Numbered from the stretch's first letter, positions 13,631-45,853 are shown. The stretch is 64,000 nucleotides of DNA from a virus (IMGVR_UViG_3300036985_010228:1-64000), one strand, 5' to 3'. Numbers and translations: made by a program. Notes: generated by a model from the sequence alone, not told the origin.

Positions 13631-14092
13631 ATGACCCTCCGCTCCAAGCTCATTCGCTTGGCTCACCAGAACCCGGATCTCCGGCCCCACCTCCTCCCGC
13701 TGCTCAAGCAGGCGGCAGGGGAAGTGAACGTCCCTGGACTCCATATCCTGGGCAACGCTGTGGTGTCTGGTAAGGGCAAGGTGCTCATGCGAGCCCAGGC
13801 ACTCGGCAATGCCCAGGTGACTGGGGAGTCAAAGGTGTTTGGCCGCGCCCAGGTGTCTGGCAATGCCAAGCTGACAGGCAAGGCTAGGGTGTATGACAAC
13901 GCCCAGGTGGCTGACAACGCCCATGTGGGAGGTGACGCCCATGTGCATGGCAAGGCCAAGGTGTTTGGCACCTCTGAAGTGTATGGTAGTACCAGTATCT
14001 CAGGCACCGCCGGGATCCTCGGTGGCAAGTGGGACGGGTCTGAGGGGCCTATCACTTCTGGCCAGTGGAAGGCTCCGGGCGTTCCCGCCTGA
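13631..14092 (+). CDS. Left-handed beta-helix (hexapeptide repeat) protein with N-terminal LRSKLIRLAH tag
   Basis: Repeats such as GNAQVT, GRAQVS, DNAQVA, GDAHVH and GKAKVF follow an N-terminal MTLRSKLIRLAHQNPDLRPHLLPLLKQAA segment. Confidence 0.8.
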   Translation: MTLRSKLIRLAHQNPDLRPHLLPLLKQAAGEVNVPGLHILGNAVVSGKGKVLMRAQALGNAQVTGESKVFGRAQVSGNAKLTGKARVYDNAQVADNAHVGGDAHVHGKAKVFGTSEVYGSTSISGTAGILGGKWDGSEGPITSGQWKAPGVPA

Positions 14093-14132
14093 TCAACCAA
14101 TGGCTCGTAGTGTTCTGACTGGAGTGACCTGA

Positions 14133-14723
14133 ATGGATCCCAATGCTCTCCCACCCACTGACGGCCTCATGGCTGCTATCCAACAGCAGCACTGGCCGAT
14201 CGTCGCCGGGTTCCTGATCACCTTCCTTGTCTACGGGGCGAATCACGCTGGCCTTCAGGCGAAGGTCGGCGCGAAGTGGATTCCCCGAATCGCAATCGGG
14301 CTCGGAGTCCTCTCCGCAATCGCAGCCCAGCTTCTTCTCGGGATCTCCTGGCAGGAGGCACTCAGCAAGGGCTTCCTGGCAGGAGCCACGGCCACGGGCC
14401 TCTGGGAGGTCCTGCTGAAGGACCTGCTCCCCAAGATCCCCGACAAGACCGTCGCTGCCGTCGTCGAAGCCGTCGAGGCTGTCGTCTCGAAGGCGACTCT
14501 GAAGACCGCCAAGCCTGCTGACTCAGAGGCCGCCGCAACGACCGTCAAGGCCAAGAAGAAGCCCGGCCCCAAGCCTGGCACCAAGAAGGTCAAGGCGGAA
14601 GCTGTGGTCGCCCCGGCTGCTCCGGCAGAGGTCCCTGCGGCTCCGGTGGTTGCAGAGGAGCCCAAGGCACCTGAAGCTGCTGCTGAGGTTCCCGCCAGTC
14701 CGCCCGTCGAGCCGAAGCCCTAG
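14133..14723 (+). CDS. Membrane protein (holin-like, about 3 TM) with Ala/Pro/Lys/Glu-rich tail
   Basis: Hydrophobic segments WPIVAGFLITFLVYG, IAIGLGVLSAIAAQLLLGI and GFLAGATATGLWE; low-complexity C-terminus. Confidence 0.6.
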   Translation: MDPNALPPTDGLMAAIQQQHWPIVAGFLITFLVYGANHAGLQAKVGAKWIPRIAIGLGVLSAIAAQLLLGISWQEALSKGFLAGATATGLWEVLLKDLLPKIPDKTVAAVVEAVEAVVSKATLKTAKPADSEAAATTVKAKKKPGPKPGTKKVKAEAVVAPAAPAEVPAAPVVAEEPKAPEAAAEVPASPPVEPKP

Positions 14724-14762
14724 CCAATCTGAGTGCCGCCTCTGCGAAGGGGTAACCTACCC

Positions 14763-14978
14763 ATGCAATGGCGGCAGAGCCTTCAGGAGGACCGTGGTCG
14801 GATCTGGACCGACTACGTCTCCGACTGCGAGAAGTGGCGGGTGGAGCAGGGCCACTCGGTAGAGCCTGACGAGGTCTGGGCGCTGTTCAGCATGGAGTCC
14901 GGCAAGAGGAAGTGGACCTCCTCTCACCGGACTCTTGCTGAGGCGAAGGCCGCAGCCGAGGCTCAGAACAGTTCGTAG
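14763..14978 (+). CDS. Small hypothetical protein
   Basis: 71-aa ORF ending TLAEAKAAAE, common in small phage proteins; preceded by a GGGGTAA motif. Confidence 0.5.
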   Translation: MQWRQSLQEDRGRIWTDYVSDCEKWRVEQGHSVEPDEVWALFSMESGKRKWTSSHRTLAEAKAAAEAQNSS

Positions 14979-15796
14979 GCGCGGTTCCCGTTCAGGTCGA
15001 GGATCCTGTACTGGTGGAGCTTGTCGCCGACGATCTTGAGTTGCGGCCCGCTCAGTCGGCGGCCTTGGGAGACGTACTTCTGGGCAATGTCCTGGGCGAA
15101 GGTCATGACCCACTCGTCGTTGGCGCGCTTTGCCGCGACCCAGAGCCTGCGGAGCGCGTCGAGCCGAAGCTCACGAGTCTCGTCCACCTCACCCACAGGG
15201 TCAGGAGCCTTCGGGTTCGGCTCGATCTTCTGCGGGTCTGGCACCTTCACCGGGCGCTTGGACTCCTCCAGAATGAAGTCCCGCTCGCGGGGCATGAGCA
15301 CGCCGCCCTGCTCGATCTTCCGGTGGTAGGCGAGCAGTTCGTTGTCGTTCTTCCAGCCGGGGATCTTCTCGATCAGATTGAGCAGGTCGATCTTGTACTT
15401 CTCGCGGTCCTCGATCACCGAGATCGCGTCGTAGAAGTCCGAAGACGACAGGTACGCCTTCTTCATGGTCTCGACGCCAGCGGCCCAGGTCTTCTTCCAG
15501 CCGATCGTGCGCTTGAAGTGGCCTTGGCCCTGAGCCTTCTTGTTGAGCGTCCTGCCGGTCACGGTGCTGACGAGGGCAAGCTGCATTGAGGCTCGACCGA
15601 CGGCCATTGCGTCGTCCGCAGAGCCGATCGTGCTGGAGAGCTTCACGGCGACTGAGGGTGAGAGGGCGAGCAGGTAGACACCCGCAAAGCGGGGGTCACG
15701 CGACCACTTCCCACGGTAGCCGATCGAGTCGAGCCACCCCTCCAGTTCCTCACGACCGATCTGAACGTAGGTGGCTGCTGCCGTCACGGTTCCCAT
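14963..15796 (-). CDS. Hypothetical protein
   Basis: 277 aa, starts immediately after the helicase stop, typical codon usage. Confidence 0.7.
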   Translation of the reverse strand: MGTVTAAATYVQIGREELEGWLDSIGYRGKWSRDPRFAGVYLLALSPSVAVKLSSTIGSADDAMAVGRASMQLALVSTVTGRTLNKKAQGQGHFKRTIGWKKTWAAGVETMKKAYLSSSDFYDAISVIEDREKYKIDLLNLIEKIPGWKNDNELLAYHRKIEQGGVLMPRERDFILEESKRPVKVPDPQKIEPNPKAPDPVGEVDETRELRLDALRRLWVAAKRANDEWVMTFAQDIAQKYVSQGRRLSGPQLKIVGDKLHQYRILDLNGNRAYELF

Positions 15797-15797
15797 G

Positions 15798-18700
15798 TCA
15801 GTTCTCCTCCTGGGGAGACGCGAGGCGACCCCACTGAGCCTCTAGTTCTTCGGGCGGTGGCTCCTCCTGAGCCATGTGCTCGAACTGTGCGATCTTGGAC
15901 AGGGGGATCAGGAAGTCGCTGACGCTCGCCGTCCTGAGGTAGTTGGCGAAGGACGCGGCCCTCTCGCCCTCCTCCACTCCACCCTCCTCCACTCCGCCCT
16001 CCCCAGCCTCTGCCATGCCCTCTTCCTCGACGGTGCCGACGAGAGGGATACACGACTCGGACATGAACACGCTGGGCGACACGTCCTTGTCGTTCACGAT
16101 CTGGGGCTCCAGGATCGTGACCTTCTGCCGACCCCGTGTGAGGGCGACGTAGGCGAGGCGGCGCTCGGATTCCATCATCTTTGGGTCCTCCATGGACCGC
16201 TTGTGCGGGAACCCGCCGTCCCACATGGGAATGAAGAGGTTCTCGACCTCCAAGCCCTTCCAGCCGTGGACGGTTCCAAGCTGGACCGCGTCAGGCCGCT
16301 CGGAGGGCTTGGGCTCGGTCTTGCCCTTCTCGAACTTCTTCGGGACGTTCCGCTTGTTGGCTTCGACGAGCGTGGTGATGTAGTCCGTGAACTGAATCGC
16401 CAGGGGGAACTTCTTGGCGGCCTTCAGGAGCGGATTGATCGGAGCCATTGCGTAGCTCGCGAGCATTTCCGGGGTGATCTTCCCGTCCCCCTCGTCCGCG
16501 ATCATTTGCACTTCCGACATGGCCTCTGCGTCGTCCATGAGGCTGGCCGACAGGGAGTCCACGAGGGTGTCGCCGTCGGGTCCCTTGAAGTTGATAATGA
16601 AGTTGATCAGGTCGGTGGCGGACCCGGACCCGACCTTGGTGACCTCCTCCAGGTAGTCGGCATACGCCTGGAGCTTGTCCACCATTTCGCTCCGGAAGTA
16701 GACCTTCTTGGCCCCCTTCTTGTTGACGAGGAAGTCGTAGTAGTCGGTGACCTTCAACTCGTCCAGCTTCCCACCGAGCTTCGGGCCGTTGATCCCGAAG
16801 TCGGGGGCCTTCACGCCGTCGAGGACGCCCTTGTTCCGGGCCTGAACGCTGTCAGTCCGCAGGGTCGTGAAGAGGCCAATGATCGGCCCAATCGCCGGGC
16901 CGCCGAGGAAGTTCTTCTTGGCCCGGAAGGGGATCCCCTCCTCGATCATCTTCATTGCGAAGGCGAACAGTTCCTTGTTCGTGCGGACAGCGAGGCCGTA
17001 GTTCGAGTAGAACTTCCCCGTCTTCCCAGCCTGCCTGACCTCTTCGAGGTCGGCGAGGATCCCGTCAGTCAGCGACGAGGCCGCTGCGTCGAGGTCGCGC
17101 ACGGAGAGGCGCTGGATTGAACCCTCGCCCTCCTTGGGGTTCGACTTGCAGGTCATGGGGATCTGCTTCGCATTGTGGGCGATCAGCTTGTTCGCTGCGT
17201 CCACGATCGCGTTGCCCGACCGGAAGTTCGTGTCGAGGAGCTTCGTGGTGAAGCCCTCGCCGCCTGGGACGAGGTTGGACTTCTCGATGAACCGGTCTGG
17301 GTCAGCGGCTCTGAACTCGTAGATCGCCTGCTTGTCGTCGCCAATGAAGGCGAACGTGTCGGCGGACATCTTCCCGCTCGCCCTGGGCTTCAGGGTCTGC
17401 GGGTCGAGGTAGCCAGCGACGAGGCCAATGAACAGGTGCTGCGCGGCGTTGAGGTCCTGCGCCTCGTCCACGAGAATACACTTGTACTGCTTCTGGTACT
17501 TGTTGAGCAGGGCCGGGCTCTCAATCAGTTCCCGCGTGGGCTGAATGAGCATATCGTCGAAGTCGAGGGCTCCCTTGATTTGGGGGATATTCCCCTTGAG
17601 CCACTCGTAGGCACCGTAGACGGCAGAGAAGATCTTCTGCCTCTCCTGGCTCTCCGCTGCCCCCAGGTCGTTGCCCTCGTCGTCCTCGCCCACGGCTGTC
17701 TCGGGGGCCTTCTGGCTGTCCATGAAGATCGAGCCAGGGGCCTTGAGGCTGTTCTTGTTGAACGAGGTGAACTTGGTGAACTCGCCGATCGGAATGTCCT
17801 TCCGCTCGCCGTCCTGGTCCTCGACGGTGAAGTCGTCGTCGGACGCCCCAATGTTGAACCACTGACCGGCGGGGTTGTGGATCCAGTACTTGTACGGGGA
17901 GTCGGCGAAGTCGAGTACCTTCTGCTTCCTCGCCAGCGCCTTCTTCACTCCGCTCTCAGACACCCCGTTCTCGGCGGCAGTCTTGACGAGGACGTTCCGA
18001 CGGGTCAGCCCGGCGGCTATGAGGGGGTGGGTAATGATCCCTTCGAGGACCTGCTTCTCGTTGGGCGCAAGCGTGCTCGGGTCCTGCGTGAACATGGACT
18101 GAAGCGCCTTCAGCGCGTTCTCGGCCTTGTCCGCCCCGACGGCTGCGCGGAGTTCTGCGGTGGCCTTCTCCACGGTGGTCCCGCGTGTGTTCCAGCCCTT
18201 GAACCGACGGGGTTGACGCCACTTGGGGTCTGCGTCTGCGAAGTTGAGCTTCGAGCCGTCGATCCGCAGGTTGGAGAGAATGTCCCAGAAGTTGTCGAGG
18301 CCCGGACCGAAGACCTCGATCCAGTAACCGGAGCCAGCCTGGGTGACCTTGACCTTCGGGATCGACGACAGGAAGTCGTTGAGGGTGTCGATCGCGGCAC
18401 CCACGAGGGTCTTGAAGCGCCCCTCCTCCTGGAGGAAGAAGTCGAGCGGGCTCTTGGCCTCGACAGGGTTCTGCACCGGGGACTGCGTCTCGATTGCCGG
18501 GTTCTGGCGATCCTCCGGAGCACGCTCAGGCTCCTCGATCTGCTTGGCGCTCGGTGCGGCGTTCGGGAAGAACGACATGGCCTCCTTCGGAGGCAGCGGG
18601 GGCTGTCCGGCCCCCGCTTGCATTTTCACCTGGGCGATTGCAACCCGCATGAGGTTGGAAATGTCCCCGTCCTTGAGCACGTCGCCGCCCCCGCGCTTGC

Positions 18701-19793
18701 TCTCGCGCAGGATCGTGAAGCCGACCGAGTGGGTCGTTCCGATACCGGGCATCTTGTCGAGGTCAGGGATCGGGAAGCCGATCTCCCCGGCGTACCGGGC
18801 GATCCGCTCCTTGAGTTCCTCTGCGCTGTCCTTCGTGAAGCTCATGGCCATGACGTTGGACATTGACAACCCGAGGTCCTGGACGTGGTGGATCACCTTG
18901 CCCGCGAGGACGCGGGTCTTGCCCGAGCCTGCACCAGCGGCGATCACGCACTTCCCACGCACGAGCATTGCGTCCTCCTGCTCGGGGGTCATTCCGAGGT
19001 GGGCGCTGATCTTCGTCGTGTGGTTCCCCTTCTCCCCGATCTGGGCGAGCTTGGAGGCCGCGTGAGCCTTGACCGAGGCCGGGTCCTTCGACCGCTCAGC
19101 GACACGGGAGACCTTCTCCAGCAGGTCGGCGTTCTCCTCCGTGGCTTCGGCGGCTGCCGGGTCGGTCGGGTCGAGAGAGTCGAGCCTCCGAGTGTTCTTG
19201 GCGACCCGGTCGAGGATCATGTCGGCGGACACCACGTCCACGGCCACCTCCTCGATCTCCGAGACAGGGTTGCCGCAGATTGCAGTCGCCTCTTGGGTCC
19301 ACCGCTTGAGGAGGGAGAGCTTGCCAGACGCCATGCGGATTCCGGCGAGCTTGAACAGGCGCGGAAGCGGGTCCGTGACCCCGGCTGCCTGGCAGATCCG
19401 AACCGCCTGTGAGGCGTCCTCATTGAACACGTCGCGCAGGACGTTCGAGTGAGACTTCATTCGCGGGAGGAGGAACTCCAGGAAGTCCGCACGGAGGTTG
19501 TAGGCGGGGTACGCTGCCCCTCGAAGGGACATATCGATCCGCGTCTTCACCCGGAGCTTCGCCTTCTCGGCGGCGTCCCGGAGGAGCGAGTCAATCCCCG
19601 CGTCCACCGACGAGGCCACGCGACGAAGGGCGGCGTCACCGTCTCCCCGGTGCTTCTTGAGCCGCTCCAGGTCCACGCCTGGCAGCATGAGCGGGTCGTC
19701 CCCCAGGACGGCAAGGATCTGGTCCACCGAGGCGACCGCCAGGTAGTAGGCGGCCATGTCCAGGAAATCGGGGGCAAGGACTTGATCAGACAT
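15798..19793 (-). CDS. UvrD/PcrA-like SF1A helicase with long N-terminal extension and a large internal insertion
   Basis: Motifs AGAGSGKT, SFTKDSAEELKERI, GTTHS, LDFDDML, LVDEAQD, GDDKQAIYEFRAAD, TNFRS, VRTN, GTVHGWKGLE and ERRLAYVALTRG. Confidence 0.92.
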   Translation of the reverse strand: MSDQVLAPDFLDMAAYYLAVASVDQILAVLGDDPLMLPGVDLERLKKHRGDGDAALRRVASSVDAGIDSLLRDAAEKAKLRVKTRIDMSLRGAAYPAYNLRADFLEFLLPRMKSHSNVLRDVFNEDASQAVRICQAAGVTDPLPRLFKLAGIRMASGKLSLLKRWTQEATAICGNPVSEIEEVAVDVVSADMILDRVAKNTRRLDSLDPTDPAAAEATEENADLLEKVSRVAERSKDPASVKAHAASKLAQIGEKGNHTTKISAHLGMTPEQEDAMLVRGKCVIAAGAGSGKTRVLAGKVIHHVQDLGLSMSNVMAMSFTKDSAEELKERIARYAGEIGFPIPDLDKMPGIGTTHSVGFTILRESKRGGGDVLKDGDISNLMRVAIAQVKMQAGAGQPPLPPKEAMSFFPNAAPSAKQIEEPERAPEDRQNPAIETQSPVQNPVEAKSPLDFFLQEEGRFKTLVGAAIDTLNDFLSSIPKVKVTQAGSGYWIEVFGPGLDNFWDILSNLRIDGSKLNFADADPKWRQPRRFKGWNTRGTTVEKATAELRAAVGADKAENALKALQSMFTQDPSTLAPNEKQVLEGIITHPLIAAGLTRRNVLVKTAAENGVSESGVKKALARKQKVLDFADSPYKYWIHNPAGQWFNIGASDDDFTVEDQDGERKDIPIGEFTKFTSFNKNSLKAPGSIFMDSQKAPETAVGEDDEGNDLGAAESQERQKIFSAVYGAYEWLKGNIPQIKGALDFDDMLIQPTRELIESPALLNKYQKQYKCILVDEAQDLNAAQHLFIGLVAGYLDPQTLKPRASGKMSADTFAFIGDDKQAIYEFRAADPDRFIEKSNLVPGGEGFTTKLLDTNFRSGNAIVDAANKLIAHNAKQIPMTCKSNPKEGEGSIQRLSVRDLDAAASSLTDGILADLEEVRQAGKTGKFYSNYGLAVRTNKELFAFAMKMIEEGIPFRAKKNFLGGPAIGPIIGLFTTLRTDSVQARNKGVLDGVKAPDFGINGPKLGGKLDELKVTDYYDFLVNKKGAKKVYFRSEMVDKLQAYADYLEEVTKVGSGSATDLINFIINFKGPDGDTLVDSLSASLMDDAEAMSEVQMIADEGDGKITPEMLASYAMAPINPLLKAAKKFPLAIQFTDYITTLVEANKRNVPKKFEKGKTEPKPSERPDAVQLGTVHGWKGLEVENLFIPMWDGGFPHKRSMEDPKMMESERRLAYVALTRGRQKVTILEPQIVNDKDVSPSVFMSESCIPLVGTVEEEGMAEAGEGGVEEGGVEEGERAASFANYLRTASVSDFLIPLSKIAQFEHMAQEEPPPEELEAQWGRLASPQEEN

Positions 19794-19858
19794 TGAGGAG
19801 ACTCCCACAGGTGGACGGCTATCCTAGCCGTCCTATCGCGTAACTATGGCAGAAGGCC

Positions 19859-20473
19859 ATGCCCTACCGTACACCCTCACCACCACCCGCCCCGGAGACA
19901 CCCAAAGGGCTCGGAGCCGACTTCTGGAGCGGGTCCAACGGGTCCTCAGAGACCCGTGCAGCCATGGCTGCCGACAGCCAAATCATTGCGGGTCTGAAGA
20001 AACTGGTTCGCCAGTGGTACAAGACCACGCAGAACAAGTACCCGAAGGACTACCACGTCATTTTCCACGACCTCAACCTGGCCACGCTCGGCAAGGCCGA
20101 GTTCATTCGGGTGGGGGGCAAGTCCAAGTACCTCCTGGGGGTGCTCACCGCGACAGCCAGGGAGGAGGGGCTGCTCGAAATCGTCGGGAAGCTGTTCGAC
20201 CAATCCACGGGCAGCAAGCTGGAAATGGTGAAGTACACGCGGGAGTCCGCCGTCCGGTGGATCGAGAACGACCCGCAGGTCCGGCAGATCCTGGACGCCT
20301 CCTTCGCTGCGAACGTGAGCAAGCTCGACAAGTACCTGCTCGCCAAGTACCCGAACGTGCAGCCGAAGGACGTAATGGAGGCGGTCTACTTCAGGGCGGT
20401 CGCGAGGTACGAAATGCAGACGTTCGACTCGCCCGCCCTCGCCCACGACCTCTACAAGTACCTCTTCGACTGA
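19859..20473 (+). CDS. Hypothetical protein
   Basis: 204 aa with strong phage-like codon usage; CCTAT-N12-GCAG motif upstream. Confidence 0.7.
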   Translation: MPYRTPSPPPAPETPKGLGADFWSGSNGSSETRAAMAADSQIIAGLKKLVRQWYKTTQNKYPKDYHVIFHDLNLATLGKAEFIRVGGKSKYLLGVLTATAREEGLLEIVGKLFDQSTGSKLEMVKYTRESAVRWIENDPQVRQILDASFAANVSKLDKYLLAKYPNVQPKDVMEAVYFRAVARYEMQTFDSPALAHDLYKYLFD

Positions 20474-20496
20474 CCGGTAAGGTCGGGAACCCACCC

Positions 20497-21681
20497 ATGA
20501 TTATCTGCTACACAGGCGAGACGCCCCCGGACTCGTTCGAGAGTTCAATCTTCCTGGCCGGACCGTCCCCCAGGAGCGAGACCGACCCGAACTGGCGGCC
20601 CGAGGCCCTGGAGTGGTTGGAAGATCTCGGCTTCGAGGGCGTCGTCTTCGCCCCAATCTACCGGGGCAAGCCCACCGTCCCCTTCGACTACGACAAGCAG
20701 GTCGAGTGGGAGAGGAAGTGGCTCAACGCCTCCGACCTGATCGTGTTCTGGATCCCCCGCGACCTGAAGAAGCTCCCCGGCTTCACGACGAACGTGGAGT
20801 ACGGAATGTGGCTGCGGTCGGGGAAGGTTCTTCTCGGGAGCCCTGAGGGGACCGAGAAAATGCAGTACCTGGAGTGGTGGGCGGACCAGGAGGGTGTCCC
20901 TGGCTACAACGACCTGTACACGCTCCTCGAAGACGCGGTGGAGAAGCTCGGGGCTGGGGCGACCCGGTCGGGCGGCGAGCGTGAGGTGCCGCTCCACCTG
21001 TGGTCGAAGCCCGAGTTCCAGACCTGGCTCTCCCTTCAGAAGGCCCAGGGGAATCGTCTCGACGGGGCTCAGGTCGTCTGGACCTTCAGGGTCGGCAAGA
21101 ACAAGGAGACGACGTTCCTGTGGGCGCTCCACGTTGACGTGTGGATCGCGTCCGAGAAGCGGTCCAAGACGAATGAGGTCGTCCTCTTCCGCCCCGACAT
21201 TTCCTCAATCGTCGTCTACTGCCGCCCCCCCGATCGAGCGGGTTGGGACTGGCTGCTCGACACGGAGATCGTCCTGGTGGAGGAGTTCCGGTCGCCCGTG
21301 GCAAACAACCTGGGCATGGTCCGCGAGGTGCCGGGCGGTTCTTCCACGAAGCCAGGTATCGACCCTGGCACCCTCGCCGCGAAGGAACTGGAAGAGGAGA
21401 CGGGCCTCGCGATCTCCGAGGACCGCTTCAAGTTCGTCGGGTGGAGGCAGGTCGCCTCGACGCTCTCGGCTCACCGGGCACACGTCTACGCCGTCGAACT
21501 GACGCCCGAGGAAATGCTCGCGCTCCGGTGGGACGACCAGGCTCACGGGAACCACGACGAGACGGAGTACACGTTCACCCGTGTCCTGACGGTCGTGGAC
21601 CTGCTGGGGGACCAGTCAATGGACTGGGCCAATCTGGGAATGCTCCTTCAGGCGCTTTTGACAGCCCCGGACAACCTCTGA
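20497..21681 (+). CDS. Nucleoside 2-deoxyribosyltransferase-like domain fused to NUDIX hydrolase
   Basis: N-terminal SIFLAGP...NWR...QVEWE...SDLIVFWIPR...TTNVEYG (NDT-like); C-terminal Nudix box PGGSSTKPGIDPGTLAAKELEEETGL. Start reassigned to the ATG at 20497. Confidence 0.85.
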   Translation: MIICYTGETPPDSFESSIFLAGPSPRSETDPNWRPEALEWLEDLGFEGVVFAPIYRGKPTVPFDYDKQVEWERKWLNASDLIVFWIPRDLKKLPGFTTNVEYGMWLRSGKVLLGSPEGTEKMQYLEWWADQEGVPGYNDLYTLLEDAVEKLGAGATRSGGEREVPLHLWSKPEFQTWLSLQKAQGNRLDGAQVVWTFRVGKNKETTFLWALHVDVWIASEKRSKTNEVVLFRPDISSIVVYCRPPDRAGWDWLLDTEIVLVEEFRSPVANNLGMVREVPGGSSTKPGIDPGTLAAKELEEETGLAISEDRFKFVGWRQVASTLSAHRAHVYAVELTPEEMLALRWDDQAHGNHDETEYTFTRVLTVVDLLGDQSMDWANLGMLLQALLTAPDNL

Positions 21682-21699
21682 GGGGCGTAAGAAGCCTCG

Positions 21700-25687: not shown

Positions 25688-25690
25688 GAC

Positions 25691-27050: not shown

Positions 27051-27057
27051 GAGGGTC

Positions 27058-31094: not shown

Positions 31095-31128
31095 CTTTCG
31101 GTCCTATAGACCTCGCGGGGTGTCTGAC

Positions 31129-32493: not shown

Positions 32494-32505
32494 ACTGCTG
32501 CCCGC

Positions 32506-33495: not shown

Positions 33496-33556
33496 CGGTT
33501 TCCACGCTATGCGTCGCCCCGGTTAGCTACGTCCCTCGGGCGGAGCGGAGGCACGC

Positions 33557-34180: not shown

Positions 34181-34186
34181 AGAACC

Positions 34187-35605
34187 ATGGCCAAGATCCT
34201 CACGACTGACGGCGCAGCACCCGCAGAGCTTCCGGCTCCTGGGACTCATGCCGTCTACACGAAGAACGACCTCCCCGGTGTGTCTGGCCTCTACGTCATG
34301 GACAGCACGGGCGTGGAGGTCGGCCCGCTCTCCACTGGCGGCGGGCCGCCGGGAGGACCCGCGAGCGGTGTCCTGACAGGGAGCTACCCTGGCCCTGGGC
34401 TTGCCGCTGGCGTCGTCGGCACGGTCAACATTGCGCCCCTGGCCGTCACGTCCACGGAGTTGGCCGACAACTCGGTGACGAACGTGAAAATGGCCGACAA
34501 CTCGGTCAACACCCTGGAGCTAGTGGACTCGGCTGTCCAGACAGCCAAGATTGCACTCGGGGCCGTCAACACGGCGAGGATTGCGCTCGGGGCTGTGACA
34601 GCCGACCGGCTCGCAATGACTCCCGTGCCCTACGGGTTCATTCTCTCGGACGCCGTGGGTGGGCCATGGACGGGCGGGCTACCCCTGCGGGTGAAGTTCG
34701 CGGCTCCTTCCGGGATCTCAATCCTCGGGGACCTCGGTGGCCTGACCGACCCGGCCTTCCCTCGGCTCAGGGGTGCCCTCGACGCGGACCTCGGGTACCT
34801 GCCGAAGGTGCTGCCCTACCAGATCAAGTCCTCGGTGGACCTGGCGGGACGCACAGACTACCCGACGGTCTTCGACGTTGCCAACTCTATCCTCCAAGTG
34901 GTGACACTTCCCGACTCGCGGAAGTACCCGCCAGGCACGGAGCTTACCTTCGTCCATAAGGGTGACGCGCCTATCGTCATTCTCAAGACCGGCACGGTCG
35001 GCGGTGGTTTCTCCAATATCGTCGGCAACTCCCCCCGCGTTCCGGCTGCGGACCAGTTGGTCATTCCCGGACAGACCCGGCGGTTCACCACGTTCGGGAC
35101 CGGGTGGCTTGTCTCTCGGGAGGTCTTCTCCCGCCTCAAGAACGTCTCGGCTGCTCTCGGGACGGCAGACGCAGTGGGTGGGTCTGCTGCCTGGAAGTTG
35201 AACCCGGCTTCCTCCTCGGTGTGGGAGGCTCTGAACTCGCTTGGGTTCCTCTCGTTCCCTGTGGACCTGCCTGAAGGCTCGACCCTCACGGACGTGGAGG
35301 TTCTCCTTGCAATGTCTGGGGCGGTCCCAGTGACCACCATGGCGGTCTACCTTTACCGGGAGGACCTCGACTATGTGGCCCTGACGAGGGCTAGTGTCCT
35401 CGTCGCTGGACCTGTCTCAGCCGCTGCCGTCTCCGGAGGGGTGATCCAGAAGGTGTCCCTCACCGGTCTGACTGAGATCCTCTACACCCCAGGCGACGGG
35501 GCTGCACCTCAACGGTATTGGACTGTGGCTATCGCGCCCTCCTCTGGCGTCCCTGGAGCTACTCAGAACAGCGTCTTCGGAGTGCGTCTCACCTACACGC
35601 TCTGA
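34187..35605 (+). CDS. Tail or head fibre-like protein
   Basis: 10-aa repeats (AVTSTELADN, SVTNVKMADN, AVQTAKIALG) typical of trimeric fibres; GPASGVLTGSYPGP module. Confidence 0.75.
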   Translation: MAKILTTDGAAPAELPAPGTHAVYTKNDLPGVSGLYVMDSTGVEVGPLSTGGGPPGGPASGVLTGSYPGPGLAAGVVGTVNIAPLAVTSTELADNSVTNVKMADNSVNTLELVDSAVQTAKIALGAVNTARIALGAVTADRLAMTPVPYGFILSDAVGGPWTGGLPLRVKFAAPSGISILGDLGGLTDPAFPRLRGALDADLGYLPKVLPYQIKSSVDLAGRTDYPTVFDVANSILQVVTLPDSRKYPPGTELTFVHKGDAPIVILKTGTVGGGFSNIVGNSPRVPAADQLVIPGQTRRFTTFGTGWLVSREVFSRLKNVSAALGTADAVGGSAAWKLNPASSSVWEALNSLGFLSFPVDLPEGSTLTDVEVLLAMSGAVPVTTMAVYLYREDLDYVALTRASVLVAGPVSAAAVSGGVIQKVSLTGLTEILYTPGDGAAPQRYWTVAIAPSSGVPGATQNSVFGVRLTYTL

Positions 35606-35618
35606 TTGAGAAGAACAC

Positions 35619-36296
35619 ATGAGCCGAATCCTCACCACTGACGTACCCGTAGACCCGCCCAATCCTGCGGCTAGAACCCACACCCTCTACACGAAGGCGG
35701 CGGGTCTTTTCGTCAAGGACTCCACCGGGACCGTGGTTGGTCCGCTCTCCACGGGCGGGGGACTCGCCCCCCCAAGCAGCCAGGACCAGTTCCTCTTCGC
35801 AGACAGCACGCCTGCGTGGGTTGCTGGACTTCCACCACGGGTGAAGTTCGCGGGGCCTTCCAGGATCTCGATCCTCGGTGACCTCGGGGGTCTGACCGAC
35901 CCTCAGAGCCCCCGCGTCGTGAACTCGGTCGGCGTGGACGTGAACCTCGGGTACTTGGCTCGGACGCAGTACTCAGCCTTCCCAGCGGGTGGCGGTGCGC
36001 CTCCAGGCACGGCTCTGCCGGACGGCTTCACGTTCTACGAGGTCAGCCTGATCGCAGACGCCTGGTACCTGCTCCCTGATTGCAGGGTGTACCCGCCGGG
36101 AACGGAGATCGTGGTGGTGAACGCCACGAACTTGGTCCAGGTCGCCCGTATCACGGCAGACGGTGGTGGTGACGCCAACAGGGCGATCATTGGTCCTTCT
36201 ACCGCGACCGGCGGCACCCAGGACATAAGCCCCGACTACTCCGGGCGACGGTTCCTCACGAACGGGTCCGGTTGGATCCTGATCGGAGCGTTCTGA
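35619..36296 (+). CDS. Short paralog of the 34187 fibre protein
   Basis: Shares ILTTD...YTK..GL..DSTG..VGPLSTGGG, RVKFA.PS.ISILGDLGGLTDP and YPPGTE segments. Confidence 0.75.
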   Translation: MSRILTTDVPVDPPNPAARTHTLYTKAAGLFVKDSTGTVVGPLSTGGGLAPPSSQDQFLFADSTPAWVAGLPPRVKFAGPSRISILGDLGGLTDPQSPRVVNSVGVDVNLGYLARTQYSAFPAGGGAPPGTALPDGFTFYEVSLIADAWYLLPDCRVYPPGTEIVVVNATNLVQVARITADGGGDANRAIIGPSTATGGTQDISPDYSGRRFLTNGSGWILIGAF

Positions 36297-36297
36297 C

Positions 36298-36846
36298 ATG
36301 GCTGGCGCGTTCAACCTGCGCGGTGTAGGGGCGATCTACCTCGACCCGAACCCCAGCCTCCCTGAGGGTGGTGACCTGAACTCGGGGATCCTCACCTTCA
36401 ACGGGACCTCTGGCGCTCTGTACCTCTCATACTTCAACCAGAGCCAGATCCAGGTCACACAGCAGATCCCCGGCGGAGAGACCGGGATCCTCGCCTCGAA
36501 CATTCTCGTCGGGAAGTCAGGCACGTTCGGGGAAGTGTCCACGCTTGTCGGGGCGCTCTACCTGCCCTCAGGGGACCTCAGCAGTTCGTCGGCCTACCTT
36601 CAGGTGTCCAACCTGCAAGGGGTTTCGGTCAACACCTTCACGGTGGAGATCCTCCCCGTAGGTGGTCAGATCCCCGTTGCCACCTTCGCGATCTCGGCGG
36701 ACCCGTCCCAAATGAACGCGGGGGTGGTCAGCGTCACCAACCCCTTGCCCCTCACTGAGGGTTGGTACGGGGTGTTTGCCTCAGCCGTTAGCTCCGCGCC
36801 TTGCTTGATCGGCGGGCTCCGGCTCTGGATCTACCCGACTCCTTGA
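36298..36846 (+). CDS. Putative virion structural protein
   Basis: 182 aa, beta-rich, within the fibre cluster. Confidence 0.6.
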   Translation: MAGAFNLRGVGAIYLDPNPSLPEGGDLNSGILTFNGTSGALYLSYFNQSQIQVTQQIPGGETGILASNILVGKSGTFGEVSTLVGALYLPSGDLSSSSAYLQVSNLQGVSVNTFTVEILPVGGQIPVATFAISADPSQMNAGVVSVTNPLPLTEGWYGVFASAVSSAPCLIGGLRLWIYPTP

Positions 36847-36862
36847 GGCTAGGGACTCCTAA

Positions 36863-37939: not shown

Positions 37940-37946
37940 CCACCCC

Positions 37947-37976
37947 TTTCCGCTCTATAACCGGCGCTCTGTAGAG
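37947..37976 (+). promoter_or_regulatory. Best copy of the conserved upstream motif TTKC-N4-CTAT-N12-GTAG (putative phage promoter)
   Basis: tttc-cgct-ctat-aaccggcgctct-gtagag; related copies near 1490, 7199, 19832, 31096, 33499, 44251, 50490 and 62169. Confidence 0.6.
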
Positions 37977-37990
37977 AACGAGGCTGACGA

Positions 37991-38320
37991 ATGGCTGCTG
38001 CAAAGCGATACAAGCTCACCCAGGAAATGATCGACTCGTTCTACACGCAGGACGGGAAGTTCCAGTTCCGGACTGGGTTCGACAGGGACAACGAGAACTG
38101 CATTTGCGGTCCCATGCTCTGCCCGGTGATCGAGATCAACGACACCGACGTGGTGCAGACCACGAACGTGACCGCCCAGGACTACCTCCTCCACTTCAGG
38201 ATCCCTCAGGGGATCTCCAAGAACGGGGTGAGGCCCCCGGCAGGTCCCGTGTGGCTCGACGTGACGGCTACTCAGCCAGTCGCGAACGTGGACCTCGACC
38301 CGTACTTCCCCCAGCAGTGA
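37991..38320 (+). CDS. Hypothetical (probably virion) protein
   Basis: 109 aa, TTTC-N4-CTAT-N12-GTAG motif upstream. Confidence 0.65.
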   Translation: MAAAKRYKLTQEMIDSFYTQDGKFQFRTGFDRDNENCICGPMLCPVIEINDTDVVQTTNVTAQDYLLHFRIPQGISKNGVRPPAGPVWLDVTATQPVANVDLDPYFPQQ

Positions 38321-38400
38321 CAATCCAACCTCCTGCCTAGCAGGAGGTACCGAGCTTTAGACAGCAAACCTTCGGCAATCTGCCAAGAAGAGGCTCCACC

Positions 38401-41400: not shown

Positions 41401-41649
41401 ACTGGAACCACCACACTGACGGATGCTGGTGCAACATGGACGGCTGCGGACGTGGGTCGCACGATCGTCATTGCGGGCGCAACCGATCCTCTCCACAACG
41501 GAACCTTCGTGATCACCGCACAGGGCGGCACGACGGTATCCTACCTGAGCGCCACCCCCGGCGCAGACCAGGCATACGCGGGTGCCTGGACCGTCTACAA
41601 GCGCACGAACGACATGGTCCTCGCGGTCGGCTCGCCGGTCGTCCTCTGA
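38401..41649 (+). CDS. Long Gly/Thr-rich fibre protein (1082 aa)
   Basis: GGxVxLTxGxG repeats, TSLQSAYD module, two copies of a DVGRTIxIAG...NGxFxI domain, and C-terminal PGDRLFLS...AGSVTNVAP (DUF2190-like). Confidence 0.8.
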   Translation: MSVGIPLKIVNGTTQQLATGDNVSANGMEQRSGTALTLGNASTTGIDIGTGVGLTALNIGSGYTGAAQIINVGTSATTGSVINLGSASSEVVVPGTMTVTTTAAFDGATTIGTSPGTDGDTLTVYAMTTFTAGRVTGSIDFKKETAGHALTVVDSTTRAAAGSPLTVRSAAGATDGGVGGVLSLKSGAGGDVVQGTNTSFAASAGTTTFVTPQALFVGGDVGRTIRIAGSTTNNGDFTIASYISPTSVTWATGVGLTEAGAGTWEFTSVLGQAGGAVSMIGGAGGIGSVDLAAGDGGAITISGGTGGAGAVGGSGGALTLTSGVPTGTSLPGVLSIQSGGADILTVDGQGNVVLKTIADDSINTLSLSTGNNSSKGGGAFSVVTGNGGSASLAVGGKISLTAGNGGSGTGADGGSVEITAGNSGSTTGNSGAVTILGGSTTLGGVDGGNVTLTGGTSSAAKAGGVIATTSRTASGVTPTTDGPVLTLTQAAGSASVWVGATSPHGNVSGTQGSLYLKTDGTVYVNTTTGTTWTQLAASGGTSLQSAYDAATPTIALDTSGGIQFNQVDGTNVNAPTLSLTNTEDGAANSTLSVDRSPVTTPAAGYGITVAMGVNATATGLNLVQSGTASGSHGINVNITGPQHLTAYGVGINVQNAGSTGTGLSVTHAGTGPGISVAANGTGIAAQFNASNSPTFGSTVTMANTGTGGGSVLDITGALGHGGISLAAVDAVGVGITMSGLGTGLIVDQTSTGDIALFKDNGSAILTLTGAGAITAEPTSGQNFTVQSKGGATAIALNTTTGVTPTGAITIDSAAGVSIDAATSSNFTVASGAALELTFGAHGSTIDLNTLADPSLVGFTKQSIVGALNELKVGTTAASQIVQTGFDTATNSVTAGMLGYLTTTANRVQKAIATSLAAALVFGANEGTAGSMTTAGTIEDQTVDAGVVLLPGDRLFLSASTAGSVTNVAPSTLTQVVIPVGYSRTGSPVASSGTGDSFASATGTTTLTDAGATWTAADVGRTIVIAGATDPLHNGTFVITAQGGTTVSYLSATPGADQAYAGAWTVYKRTNDMVLAVGSPVVL

Positions 41650-41671
41650 GCCTTCTAGGGGAGTGAACTGA

Positions 41672-41700
41672 GGGAAGCCACCCAATCTGGGTGGCTTCCC
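41672..41700 (+). terminator. Perfect 13-bp stem-loop after the long fibre gene
   Basis: GGGAAGCCACCCA-ATC-TGGGTGGCTTCCC. There is no U-tract, so a terminator role is uncertain. Confidence 0.55.
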
Positions 41701-41715
41701 CGCTACAGGAGACCC

Positions 41716-42075
41716 TTGCCCGCGTTCAAGCCAATCGTCCTCGGACCCACGGGTTCCATGGAGCAACTTCCCGTAGGGAGCGTCCTGGTAGGGGCAAACT
41801 CCTCGGGCAGTGCGACGTTGGACTTTGGGCTGGCCCCTGGCTCGAATATCGCTGAGGCGGTGGTCACGGGCCTCCCTGCAATCACTGCGGGGGCTCGGGT
41901 TCAGGCTTGGCTCATGGCGTCTTCGACGGCCTCGCACAACAGCTACGAGCACGCTGTCGTGCCTATGAAAATCACTTGTGGGAGCGTCATTCCAGGGACT
42001 GGCTTCACGATCACAGGTGTCACGGAATGGCGTCTAACCGGAACCTTCACTGTCCAGTGGATAGTGTGGGCGTAG
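41716..42075 (+). CDS. Small structural protein
   Basis: 119 aa; its KPIVL.....EQL..G start resembles the N-terminus of the 38401 protein (PLKIVNGTTQQLATG). Confidence 0.6.
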   Translation: MPAFKPIVLGPTGSMEQLPVGSVLVGANSSGSATLDFGLAPGSNIAEAVVTGLPAITAGARVQAWLMASSTASHNSYEHAVVPMKITCGSVIPGTGFTITGVTEWRLTGTFTVQWIVWA

Positions 42076-42085
42076 TGAGGGCTTC

Positions 42086-42280
42086 ATGATCACTTCAGGC
42101 GGACCACTCGGCGGCAACTCGGTGAGCGACGTTCCAGACGGAACGTCGATCGACCTCCCTTGTGACGACCCAAGGGGTCGTCTTGCCCGCTACACGGCCT
42201 ACACCGACCCGGAGACGGGCCAGCAGCAGGCGATCTTCGCTGGATTGGTACAACCCCCAGCCCCCCCGGTAGGAGTCTGA
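42086..42280 (+). CDS. Small hypothetical protein
   Basis: 64 aa filling the gap between co-oriented genes. Confidence 0.4.
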   Translation: MITSGGPLGGNSVSDVPDGTSIDLPCDDPRGRLARYTAYTDPETGQQQAIFAGLVQPPAPPVGV

Positions 42281-42281
42281 C

Positions 42282-43724
42282 ATGGCTGGCTTTCGCGTAG
42301 AGGGCAACACCTCCGGCAACGTCGCAGAGGTTGACTCTGGGCACCACCTCCTGACCAATCTCGGCAAGGACACGGCGCTCGCTGGGTACGTCGCGATCAT
42401 GTCGGAGAACGACGACGGCGCAGATACGGGCGTTCCGTACCTCCAGTCGCCTGAGACGACCGACGACTTCCGGCTTCGCGTGGGTACGGACACGCTGCTG
42501 CTGAGTGAGTCCTTCAACTACACGGCTCAGAACTCAGGGGTGTTCAAGCACCTCCTGACGACCATGACGATCACGTACACGTCAGGTCTCGTGAACCTGA
42601 ACGCTGGAGCCAGTGTTGCAGCAAACACGCAGGCACTCTTTCAGACGTGGCGGACGTTCCCCCTGACAGGTGCGGCACCGACCTACTTCGAGTGGACGGC
42701 GCTCTACATGAGCACGCTCCAGTCGGACAACGTCATGGAGATCGGCGCAGGCATTCCCTCGACGGCAACCCCTTGGGCGCTGAACGACGGAATCGTGTTC
42801 CGCTACACGGCGGCTGGAGAGTTGAAGGGAGTCATTTCCAACAACGGCTCTGAGACAATGACCCCGGCGTTCACGAACGTCCCTGCGGTCGGTGTGCTTC
42901 ACCGTTATGTGATCACGGTGAACCAGACAGAGGTCGAGTTCTGGATCGACAACACGCTCCAGGCGAAGCTCGACATTCCTGGTGGGACTGGAAGCCCATG
43001 CTCAGAGTCAGCACTCCCGGCGTTCTCCCGTATCTACAACACGTCAGCATTCGTAGGTACAGCGCAGATCCTCAAGGTCTCGGACACAACGGTCAGCCTG
43101 GGTGACTGGGCGACTAGCAAGGCGTGGTCGGATCAAATGGCCGGTGCTGGCCTCAGCGCGATCCAGGGCGCTGGCGGCATGGCTCAGGGCTCGACCGCGA
43201 ACTACGCCAACAGCGCGGCCCCGGCCTCTGCCACTCTTGCAAACGCCACGGCAGGCTATGTCACGCTCGGAGGTCAGTGGCAGTTCTTGGCTGTGGCTGG
43301 ATCCGAGACTGACTACGCGCTGTTCGGGTACCTTGTGCCCGCACCAGCAGTCGCGGTCACGGGGCGACAACTGTTCATTACCGAAGTGTCAATCTCTGCG
43401 ATCAACACCGTCGCAGCGGTGGCTACCACTGCGACGGTGCTCCAGTGGGCAATCGCTGTGGGCTCGTCCGCCGTCTCCCTGGCGCAGGCTGAAGGTGCTG
43501 CGACCAAGGCTCGCCGGGTCAAGACGCTCGGGTTCCAATCTTTCCCGATCGGTGCGGCAATCGCAGCCATGCCGACACCCCCGGAGATCGTCCGCAACTT
43601 CAAGACCCCCCTCGTAGCAAACGCGGGTGAGTACGTTCACGTCATTCTCAAAATGCCGATCGCGACGGCGACCGCCACGCAGATCATTCGTGGCACCTGT
43701 TCGATCACTGCCTACTGGGAGTGA
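42282..43724 (+). CDS. Virion protein with concanavalin/LamG-like beta-sandwich (possible receptor binding)
   Basis: LHRYVITVNQTEVEFWIDNTL motif typical of ConA-like domains; lies at the end of the fibre cluster. Confidence 0.6.
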   Translation: MAGFRVEGNTSGNVAEVDSGHHLLTNLGKDTALAGYVAIMSENDDGADTGVPYLQSPETTDDFRLRVGTDTLLLSESFNYTAQNSGVFKHLLTTMTITYTSGLVNLNAGASVAANTQALFQTWRTFPLTGAAPTYFEWTALYMSTLQSDNVMEIGAGIPSTATPWALNDGIVFRYTAAGELKGVISNNGSETMTPAFTNVPAVGVLHRYVITVNQTEVEFWIDNTLQAKLDIPGGTGSPCSESALPAFSRIYNTSAFVGTAQILKVSDTTVSLGDWATSKAWSDQMAGAGLSAIQGAGGMAQGSTANYANSAAPASATLANATAGYVTLGGQWQFLAVAGSETDYALFGYLVPAPAVAVTGRQLFITEVSISAINTVAAVATTATVLQWAIAVGSSAVSLAQAEGAATKARRVKTLGFQSFPIGAAIAAMPTPPEIVRNFKTPLVANAGEYVHVILKMPIATATATQIIRGTCSITAYWE

Positions 43725-43868
43725 CTTCGGTTGGGTGCCCCCAACCTGACACCCTCAACATGAGAATGGCTGCGTGACCCTCCGAAAGGCACTGGTAGAA
43801 GCGGCGTGGGTATCATTGGGAGGGGCGTAACTACCCCACCAACCCTCACCTGAGAGATAGCACTACCC

Positions 43869-44186
43869 ATGGCCAAGCCGAAGAAGCCCCAAGCCGTCGC
43901 CGCCCCGGTCGCAGAAGCCCCCGTCGCGGTCGCCGCAATCGAAGAGACGCCCGTTCCCGCTGACCCCTACGCGGTGACCGAGTTCGTGCTCGACCCGCAC
44001 GACGCGACGCTCGTGCAACTCAGCCAGGAGCGGATCCAGAACGCCCAGCTTCACCTCCAGAACCGCAAGAACGAGTTCGAGGGGCTCCTCGCTCAGGTTC
44101 GCACGAAGTACGAGGAGGGTGGCAAGTTCACCATGTCCACGATCGACGTGGCCCGTGGCGTCGGCGGTCGGGCTCTCCGGCGCTGA
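43869..44186 (+). CDS. Small coiled-coil protein
   Basis: 105 aa, typical codon usage. Confidence 0.6.
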   Translation: MAKPKKPQAVAAPVAEAPVAVAAIEETPVPADPYAVTEFVLDPHDATLVQLSQERIQNAQLHLQNRKNEFEGLLAQVRTKYEEGGKFTMSTIDVARGVGGRALRR

Positions 44187-44282
44187 AGAGCGACCTGAGG
44201 CGATCTAGTAGATCCTCAGGCTCACTAGGTCGCCCAATCAGGGCGCTACGTTGCTGTCCCTATACTTGTGCCTCGGTAGCCC

Positions 44283-44834
44283 ATGAGTCCGAAGCCCCCG
44301 AAGCCAGCGAGCCCGTCCCAGGTCAGCTACACCAAGCACCTGATCGACCAGGCCGTGTCTGGAGTCAAGGGCGTCCCCGGCTGGCTCTCGAAGGACGAAG
44401 CTCCCTCGGAGAAGCAGCTTGCGGACATGGACGCCGACGCGATCTCGGCGCTCATTGACTCACTCAAGGCCCGCAAGCCCTTCGAGGTCGAGCGGTTCGG
44501 CAACGGCTCCTACCGAGTCCACAGAAAGTCCTCCCTCATGACACCCTCAATCTCTCGTGTTGCGTACATGGCGCTCGCCCGGCAAGCCGTGAGGGGTGTT
44601 CTGGCGGGGCGGCTTCCCTCTGGCCCCGGAGCAGAGGAGGCGAAGAAAATGCTCGACATGATGCTCCAGGACGCGCCTGTCGGGCACGTCTTCTCCGCGA
44701 AGGACGTTCACAAGAACGTCGGCGGCAAGTGGATCGAGATCTTCCAGTCCCTCGGCTCGACCTTCGGGGACAAGGTGCTCCTCCGCACGGACGAGCCCGG
44801 CAAGTACATGATCGCCAAGGCCAAGCGGCACTGA
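44283..44834 (+). CDS. Two-domain hypothetical protein with internal SRVAYMALARQA tag
   Basis: 183 aa; CCTAT-N12-GTAG motif immediately upstream. Confidence 0.7.
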   Translation: MSPKPPKPASPSQVSYTKHLIDQAVSGVKGVPGWLSKDEAPSEKQLADMDADAISALIDSLKARKPFEVERFGNGSYRVHRKSSLMTPSISRVAYMALARQAVRGVLAGRLPSGPGAEEAKKMLDMMLQDAPVGHVFSAKDVHKNVGGKWIEIFQSLGSTFGDKVLLRTDEPGKYMIAKAKRH

Positions 44835-44839
44835 TCTGC

Positions 44840-45853
44840 GTGCGTGCGCTCGGCCAACTAAGCGTCCCAATCTTTCTTCAGGAGAAGAGCTACTCCTGCG
44901 GCGCGGCGGCGGTACGCTCGGTCGTCTCGTACTTCACCGGGCAGGACATTCCTGAGCAGGCGCTCCGGGCCGCCTTGAAGACGAGCCCGGAGGAGGGGAC
45001 CGACCCTTCCGACATGGTGGCGTTCCTCGACCGGCTGCCTGGGCTGACGGTCCAGTTGAGGCCCCTGACTGTCGAGGACCTCCGCCGCTGTGTGGACGGT
45101 GGGGAGGTCGTGATCGTCGAGCTTCAAGCCTGGTCCGAAGAGAAGGACCCAGACTACCGGAAGTCGTGGGACGACGGTCACTTCGTCGTCCTGAGCGGGT
45201 ACGAGGGCGACCGGTTCCTCTTTGCTGACCCGTCCTCGGAGAAGCCAGACTACCTCGAAGCGGACGAGCTTGAGGAGCGGTGGCATGACGAGGACGGGGG
45301 AATGCGTGCGGAGAGGCTGGGGATCGTCTGCACGCCCAAGAGAGCTACGCCCATGAGAACAGCCTCGCAGCACCGTGTCGGTCGGATCTTCGCCCTGAAG
45401 GTCGCCCTGGAGACGAAGAAGTGGGGGCCGTTCGAGTTCAAGATCGACCGTCCGAAGGGCTTCAAGAAGGAGTGGCCCCAGGACGACGGCTCGGTCAAGA
45501 GGTACACCTACCCGGTGGACTACGGGTACTTCGTCGGCCACACGGGCGAGGACAACGAGGGTCTCGACGCCTTCATTGGGGACGACCCTGAGGGGAAGAT
45601 TGAGAGCTTCCTCAAAATGAAGCCAGGCAAGGACGGGAAGCTCGTCCCTGACGAGACGAAGTTCCTGATCGGCCTCACGGAGGACGAGCGCAAGAAGGTC
45701 ATGGCGCTGTACGAGCCGGGAATGGTCACGGACCTCAAGGACTTCGTGGACGTGTACGAGTTGGTCGCCGCCTTGAACCACTTCCGGGACAAGAAGAACA
45801 AGAAGGCAGCGGCGGCTCGGGTCGCGGCCAGGTTCCTCGCTCGTCAAATCTGA
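44840..45853 (+). CDS. C39-like cysteine peptidase fused to inorganic-pyrophosphatase-like domain
   Basis: QEKSYSCGAAA, GHFVVLSGY and FADP (C39 triad); YPVDYGY...GEDNEGLDAFIG...DETK (phage InPase-like). Start set to the GTG at 44840. Confidence 0.8.
   Translation: MRALGQLSVPIFLQEKSYSCGAAAVRSVVSYFTGQDIPEQALRAALKTSPEEGTDPSDMVAFLDRLPGLTVQLRPLTVEDLRRCVDGGEVVIVELQAWSEEKDPDYRKSWDDGHFVVLSGYEGDRFLFADPSSEKPDYLEADELEERWHDEDGGMRAERLGIVCTPKRATPMRTASQHRVGRIFALKVALETKKWGPFEFKIDRPKGFKKEWPQDDGSVKRYTYPVDYGYFVGHTGEDNEGLDAFIGDDPEGKIESFLKMKPGKDGKLVPDETKFLIGLTEDERKKVMALYEPGMVTDLKDFVDVYELVAALNHFRDKKNKKAAAARVAARFLARQI

Follow-up and report, generated by a model that had tools for sequence, protein, structure and literature searches.

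Short peptides that bring a protein to the inside of a shell are known from several systems. The C-terminal tail of the HK97 maturation protease and, in the P22 scaffolding protein, the coat-binding helix-turn-helix at the C-terminus are short, basic, helical elements that bind inside procapsids of the HK97 fold and are able to bring foreign proteins in. The encapsulation peptides of bacterial microcompartments and the cargo-loading peptides of encapsulins, again short and helical, lie at the termini of unrelated enzymes or between their domains, are joined to them by a linker and bind the shell interior; they serve cellular compartments, are weakly conserved and are not removed. The diverse internal proteins of phage T4 have only their capsid targeting sequence (CTS) in common (PMC3012670). 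Here we compare with these systems a 26-residue helix-turn-helix peptide, the LIRLAH tag, and the junction motif [RK]-x-A-[SA] at its border, both found in a stretch of viral DNA of 64,000 nucleotides (IMGVR_UViG_3300036985_010228:1-64000), hereafter the window.

The window takes up the first 64 kb of an IMG/VR record of 76,089 bp, the completeness of which is put at 17% by CheckV; its G + C content is about 64%. Its closest relative in GenBank is the 485-kb uncultured phage LR745208.1, with 64% identity in the DNA polymerase PolA. The window is a piece of a huge phage, one of an abundant uncultured clade with a near-invariant, 291-residue major capsid protein (MCP) of the HK97 type.

A portable tag on unrelated proteins

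The tag lies on the plus strand at 13631..13708, reads MT-LRSKLIRLAH-QNPD-LRPHLLPLL-K and scores 59 bits with the profile of its family. It forms the true N-terminus of its gene, which accordingly starts at ATG 13631 rather than at GTG 13598. The search for homologs of the tag was made with no more than the N-terminal 40 residues of the encoded protein, hereafter the 13631 protein. Sixty-two proteins (53 of 84–268 residues and nine longer) are alike in the tag only, where they share 53–96% identity, most of them 65–90%; their remainders are unrelated. The 38 copies at IMG/VR loci give the consensus xx-LRSKLIRLAH-xxPELRPHLLPLL-KxA, in which L3, L10, A11, H12, R18, L21, P23 and L25 are invariant. 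Codons vary freely at synonymous sites, and the DNA ahead of the copies shows no relation, so that the target of selection is the peptide. We conclude that the tag is a genuine portable module under protein-level selection.

What does the tag look like, and has it been seen before? AlphaFold2 (AF2) builds a helix from residue 3 to 13, a turn at N-P and a second helix from 15 to 28, with a predicted local distance difference test (pLDDT) score of 85–94; the alignment for the tagged protein had unrelated C-terminal parts, and the model is reliable for the tag alone. The tag matches nothing in Pfam and no solved structure in the Protein Data Bank, even at E = 10, and a full-text literature search with tag peptide strings returned nothing relevant. 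The family appears to be undescribed so far. Kinship with LRV/HEAT-like repeats (PF01816) was considered and set aside: aligned by hhalign with the LRV repeats found in a tagged protein, the tag reached E = 0.38 across nine columns.

In the window the tag is joined to a beta-solenoid of the bactofilin or ‘polymer-forming cytoskeletal’ type (13718..14092, plus strand; phrog_7964, 1e-25; phrog_5070, 1e-24). This domain occurs in 67 phage records, and among the matches listed none takes in residues 1–13; in none of these 67 solenoid-bearing records was the tag found. A tag joined to a pre-existing domain fits the 13631 protein well. A holin-like gene (phrog_1299) follows the tagged gene at 14133–14723. 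The cargos of other tags include RelA_SpoT, WGR, pentapeptide, LRV and GNAT domains, and the majority belong to no family.

How widespread is the tag? Run against 1.84 billion representative proteins, its profile matched 3,474 clusters at E ≤ 1e-3 and 419 at E ≤ 1e-10. One of 50,697 GenBank phage records contains it; among 185,579 species genomes it was met only in two short contigs of metagenome-assembled genomes. Eleven copies are dispersed along LR745208.1. The loci in IMG/VR, gathered with full-length alignment, number 37, on contigs of 9.8–485 kb, most of them longer than 55 kb; tandem arrays of two or three small tagged genes are common, and many of the tag-bearing contigs are among those encoding the MCP of the clade. 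Of the 65 tags in a sample unbiased by copy number, 58 are N-terminal, two C-terminal and five internal. The top-scoring proteins hold two to five tags, linked by spacers rich in K, E and D. Short motifs recur between the spacers of such multi-tag proteins, namely GCEKLPEGPMRDNCEKKK, EGKPADPTKNMSPED..W..KDKFK, EPYMKG.FTQQE..EL.D.Q and GEVPEAFKKQW; the proteins concerned are P0064, P0066, P0067, P0070, P0073, P0088 and P0153.

What might such a tag do? The reading that we prefer is that it is a capsid-targeting tag accompanied by sites for the maturation protease, analogous to the T4 CTS and gp21. We hold this tentatively, as a shade short of probable. Its main rival makes the tag a peptide for docking to, or oligomerisation at, a hub other than the capsid; a condensate of phage replication or assembly, a chaperone of the phage or a conserved protein of the host might be that hub. 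On that account the K-x-A-[SA] borders would cap helices or belong to the folded unit, and the multi-tag, K/E-rich proteins would be multivalent cross-linkers. The placement of the tag speaks for this rival, since C-terminal and internal tags exist too, and the many proteins with several copies separated by charged, low-complexity spacers have the usual architecture of scaffold and client. So does the AF2 model, a self-contained helical hairpin. We nevertheless consider the rival rather unlikely, and the grounds for this lie in the junction motif and in the head proteins of the clade.

The junction motif at the borders of tag and InPase module

The candidate processing site of the 13631 protein is K-Q-A-A (13706..13717, plus strand), directly 3′ of the tag. 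The initial annotation had drawn attention to a peptide ending in K-x-A at this place, and such an ending is indeed a real feature of the tag family, with K-x-A-A in the window copy: within seven residues past LLPLL, 202 of 265 tags (76%) have [RK]xA, against a background of 8.2%, at an offset of 0 to 4. The motif likewise stands ahead of internal and C-terminal tags (116 of 160, or 72.5%, against 13.8% background), mainly in the register K-x-A-S-L-R. The shifting register past the tag is not expected of a fixed helix cap, and so counts against a non-capsid hub.

The motif recurs in a second protein of the window. The plus-strand gene at 44840..45853, the likely start of which is GTG 44840, right behind the stop of the gene upstream, encodes a fusion of a Peptidase_C39-like domain and a pyrophosphatase (InPase) domain, a small protein of the polyvalent type. 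Both domains pass their Pfam cut-offs (40.5 bits for C39, where the cut-off is 24; 35.4 bits for InPase, PF18823), and AF2 models the fusion as two domains with a mean pLDDT of 82.7. Within the flexible linker between peptidase and InPase lies R-T-A-S (R173–S176; 45356..45367, plus strand), a candidate processing site, which falls in the sole segment of the fusion with a pLDDT below 50 (residues 170–176). On the N-side of the InPase core 11 of 12 relatives have [RK]xA[SA], against 7% expected. A conserved flank motif, R-V-A-A (45818..45829, plus strand), is part of the C-terminal helix past the core, and 15 of 17 relatives have [RK]xA[SA] within 24 residues of that side of the core, where 6% is expected; in several of them further domains come after it. 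The InPase border motif is kept whatever adjoins it. We conclude that the junction motif is real and is conserved at the borders of both the tag and the InPase module. That it borders a core unrelated to the tag is a further point against the hub.

Packaging of proteins with an InPase domain has been proposed before. PF18823 was defined by Iyer, Burroughs, Anand, de Souza and Aravind (2017, PMC5512222), and the passages of that paper on InPase predict that the polyvalent proteins which bear it are packaged in virions. In a Xanthomonas phage a protein annotated as ‘internal head protein’ includes InPase; the annotation is that of phage Rb1.

Might the tag instead be a double-glycine leader, with the window's own C39-like peptidase as its processing enzyme? 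Double-glycine leaders are short, helical and N-terminal and sit on variable cargo, as the tag does, and the window has a peptidase domain of the C39 family. However, no leader of the Gly-Gly type was found at the tag ends or in the fusion linker; at the tag end neither Gly-Gly, Gly-Ala nor Gly-Ser is conserved, and the P2 residue is E, Q, S or T. The InPase junction motif also persists in relatives that have no peptidase domain. LR745208.1 has 11 tags and no detectable homolog of the window's C39 peptidase, which makes this peptidase unlikely as the general processing enzyme. We therefore regard a leader as very improbable.

The head module of the clade

The 76,089-bp record has no head genes. 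In LR745208.1 the head module runs in the order 474-residue maturation protease (phrog_18299), 422-residue scaffold-like protein rich in K and E, 134-residue tagged protein, 228-residue protein and 291-residue MCP, which is HK97-like (phrog_2522, 2e-47); one tagged gene thus stands between those for the scaffold-like protein and the MCP. A GIY-YIG endonuclease gene, similar to those of the window, adjoins this module, and a 1,229-residue protein encoded after the MCP includes a LAGLIDADG endonuclease.

The MCP was compared over the best 80 of 491 IMG/VR matches, on contigs of up to 618 kb. In these best 80 it is 89–100% identical, against 30–80% for PolA, helicase, protease and scaffold. The MCP of the clade is unusually frozen. 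Its identity of at least 89%, set beside 64% for PolA and 43% for the helicase, matches the extreme conservation of the tag.

How is the junction motif distributed over the head proteins? In the five W01 head proteins [RK][TVLQIM]A[SA] occurs nine times against 1.05 expected. Counted per protein over homologs, which are non-independent samples, the motif is found 2.10 times in the protease (42 homologs; 0.35 expected, or 6.1-fold over shuffles) and 3.32 times in the scaffold-like protein (50 homologs; 0.43 expected, or 7.8-fold), while in the 228-residue protein (54 homologs) it is found 0.04 times against 0.08 expected. Every protease and scaffold-like homolog has at least one site. The conserved sites are K/R-x-A-S-S at the C-terminus of the scaffold, KLAAS in the MCP, where it is invariant at residues 25–29, and R-L-A in the protease tail; the other sites shift. 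The enrichment of six- to eightfold in the prohead protease and the scaffold-like protein counts against a hub outside the capsid.

The core of the tag itself, LIRLA, is echoed in the same two proteins: in the conserved C-terminal tail of the protease (TLVRLAKLL; hhalign P = 0.0012) and in the scaffold-like protein (KCIRIA; P = 0.0074). A pattern of the LIRLA type occurs once in the window proteome, in the tag itself, and 0.015 occurrences are expected in the pair of protease and scaffold-like protein. The resemblance of the tag core to helices of two proteins internal to the procapsid again argues against the hub. The hub gains, on the other hand, from the location of tagged genes, which are scattered over the genome without enrichment near the MCP.

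We infer packaging and cleavage on two grounds, the analogy with T4 and the excess of the motif among proteins of head maturation. In the capsid-targeting scheme, the tag would dock its cargo inside the procapsid, on the coat, the scaffold or the core; the prohead protease would cut at the [RK]-x-A-[SA] junction; and the cargo, loaded and then freed from its tag, would be delivered along with the DNA. The multi-tag proteins with K/E-rich spacers would provide an accessory scaffold or core, to be taken apart at the same sites. Extended to the whole clade, the scheme becomes a delivery code, in which the tag binds the near-invariant interior of the capsid, [RK]-x-A|[SA] frees the cargo, thousands of fast-evolving effectors are injected, and multi-tag disordered proteins form a disposable core or scaffold. 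We offer this wider code as a possibility, and a little more tentatively than the scheme from which it is built.

Several observations weigh against a capsid address. The clade has no cultured member. A tagged gene lies within 6 kb of the MCP in 14 of 80 loci, about what the density of tags predicts. The sites in the MCP are uninformative because the MCP is too conserved, and some of those in the protease and scaffold lie within conserved helices and may have a structural role instead of being cut. Roughly one tag in four has no [RK]xA nearby, and C-terminal tags stop 0–3 residues past LLPLL and could therefore be removed at an upstream site only. The fusion has no LIRLAH tag, which would leave its route into any capsid unexplained. 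Finally, both the four-residue motif and the comparison based on LIRLA were sharpened once the data had been seen, so that their P-values are optimistic.

What would follow if the tag is a capsid address? It would mark the internal or injected repertoire of very abundant huge phages, which could then be gathered from sequence data without culture. That repertoire would span over 3,400 families of cargo, hardly any of which has a known function, and they would become prime candidates for early host takeover and anti-defence. The tag and its cleavage site would also make a compact natural pair with which to load foreign proteins into HK97-fold capsids. Even with a partner other than the capsid, the tag defines a large, unannotated phage system of protein sorting.

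The loose motif in the helicase and the 44283 protein

The initial annotation had proposed something broader: that one loose tag, R/K-[TVLQI]-A, sends four proteins of the window into the head, namely the solenoid, a 183-residue protein (the 44283 protein), the peptidase–InPase fusion and a UvrD-like helicase. All nine segments that it quoted are exactly where it placed them. Those on the plus strand are MTLRSKLIRLAH (13631–13666) and LLKQAA (13700–13717) in the 13631 protein, SISRVAYMALARQA (44547–44588) in the 44283 protein, and MRTASQHRVGRIFALKVA (45353–45406) and KKAAAARVAARFLARQI (45800–45850) in the fusion, of which the last is the C-terminus; ALRRVAS (19611–19631), LVKTAA (17973–17990), YLRTAS (15924–15941) and LSKIA (15888–15902) are on the minus strand, in the helicase. 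Its domain calls (Peptidase_C39 with InPase PF18823, UvrD-like helicase, beta-solenoid) were right as well.

Is the loose motif more frequent than expected? In the window proteome used for counting (65 proteins, 23,905 residues), [RK][TVLQI]A occurs 79 times, against 66.2 ± 7.8 in per-protein shuffles and 71.3 from composition (P = 0.07). The supposed excess of the three-residue motif is not significant at the level of the proteome. For the four-residue form, [RK][TVLQIM]A[SA], the proteome has 22 occurrences where 11.8 are expected, which favours the proposal; five replication proteins of the window have a total of 0, where 1.17 is expected. Nor do the four proteins share one tag. The profile of the real tag, run on the 76-kb record in its six reading frames, matches the 13631 protein only: it does not detect the tag in the fusion or the helicase, finds no match in SISRVAYMALARQA and gives no score to the other named segments. 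A derived pattern, R[VIL]A..[FLMIVA]L, had three matches against 0.81 expected, and was rejected, as these were its own source segments and helicase motif VI.

The helicase lies on the minus strand at 15798..19808 and has 1,336 residues. Its Pfam matches are PF00580 (6.5e-44) and PF13361 (1.7e-19); it has both the N- and the C-terminal domain of the UvrD/Rep enzymes of superfamily 1, and motifs III and VI are visible in its sequence. It contains 14 copies of [RK][TVLQI]A against 5.0 expected (P about 5e-4, uncorrected) and five of the four-residue form against 0.95. None of the control motifs (reverse, acidic or with another last residue) is in excess in the helicase, and the excess is thus specific to that motif. 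However, two of the sites are the canonical motifs III (GDDKQAIYEFR) and VI (ERRLAYVALTR), and the contexts of the sites are heterogeneous. The ortholog in LR745208.1, 43% identical, keeps five of the 14 three-residue sites and one of the five four-residue sites. The helicase thus fails as a carrier of the tag, its sites being part of core motifs or, for the most part, not conserved in the ortholog; an enzyme cut at 14 places would, moreover, be non-functional. Its R/K-x-A sites are most likely due to chance and no part of the system.

The ortholog differs in one further respect. In LR745208.1 (L051/L052, 300647–305818) it has an intein-like insert of 398 residues, which begins with C and ends in SHN; the insert lies immediately upstream of motif III (GDDKQAIYEFR) and is absent from the helicase of the window.

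The 44283 protein has no homologs in phage records. A likeness of the type RVAxxxLARQ between it and the C-terminus of the 44840 fusion, with seven identities in 11 positions, is equalled by 42 of 1,431 pairs (3%) and is therefore at the level of chance. The segment SISRVAYMALARQA is probably another chance occurrence, outside the system.

As a whole, the proposal of one loose tag on four proteins is largely refuted, and we give it next to no credence. Its central idea, a portable tag on acquired domains that is cut after Ala, agrees with the 13631 protein and with the junctions of InPase, and breaks down for the helicase. Such a reading is plausible for two of the four proteins.

Other genes of the window

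Among the products of the window are a DNA polymerase of family A, a primase and two kinds of helicase, DnaB-like and SNF2-like, as well as baseplate and tail-fibre proteins. Three giant proteins of 1,474–1,845 residues have no family match. Two of these giants, at 1542–5966 (1,474 residues) and 8046–13565 (1,839 residues), stand on either side of a papain-family (Peptidase_C1) protein of 251 residues at 5974–6729. The neighbouring tail-fibre-like genes at 34187–35605 and 35619–36296 are paralogs, which share an N-terminal module of about 50 residues (55% identity) and a second region (37%). Two genes for GIY-YIG homing endonucleases, at 48438–49379 and 55098–55976, lie among the baseplate and tail genes and have a lower G + C content at third codon positions (GC3), 0.65–0.67.

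The open reading frame of 611 residues at 19846–21681 is not a single gene. GC3 is high in the +1 frame (19859–20473, 204 residues), and near 20470–20545 the high GC3 moves to the frame of 19846. The region holds either two genes or a frameshift.

Comparison with known systems

How, then, does the tag compare with what has been described? Like the tag, the T4 CTS, found on internal proteins IPI–III and Alt and removed by gp21, is short, conserved and N-terminal, and the small proteins that bear it are otherwise unrelated and evolve fast. The genes concerned often lie in variable arrays, and a conserved short motif comes directly after the peptide (PMC3012670). The two differ in that no sequence likeness is evident; the tag is a helix-turn-helix of about 26 residues against about ten in T4, and its junction is [RK]-x-A-[SA] against L/I-x-E. 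The tag of the clade occurs also at C-termini and in several copies, and packaging in the clade is predicted by analogy. The T4-type protease (PF03420) and capsid (PF07068) families have no match in LR745208.1, in searches made without a working control.

The polyvalent proteins (PMC5512222) bear upon the fusion, in which two unrelated domains of the conflict type, Peptidase_C39 and InPase, are joined in one phage polypeptide. Both domains are typical of that class of proteins, and RelA_SpoT is a cargo in both systems; the fusion of the window differs in being small, with two domains. The passages of the paper on InPase, autoproteolysis and packaging mention neither an address tag nor an [RK]xA[SA] junction motif.

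Like the procapsid-binding elements of HK97 and P22 the tag is basic and helical, in its case a helix-turn-helix, and its core resembles the protease tail and a scaffold-like helix of its own clade. That similarity extends over seven to nine residues only and was noticed after the fact, and the element of the clade is found on thousands of cargos rather than being confined to protease and scaffold. From the peptides of bacterial microcompartments and encapsulins, finally, the tag of the clade differs in being strongly conserved, phage-specific and flanked by a putative cut motif.

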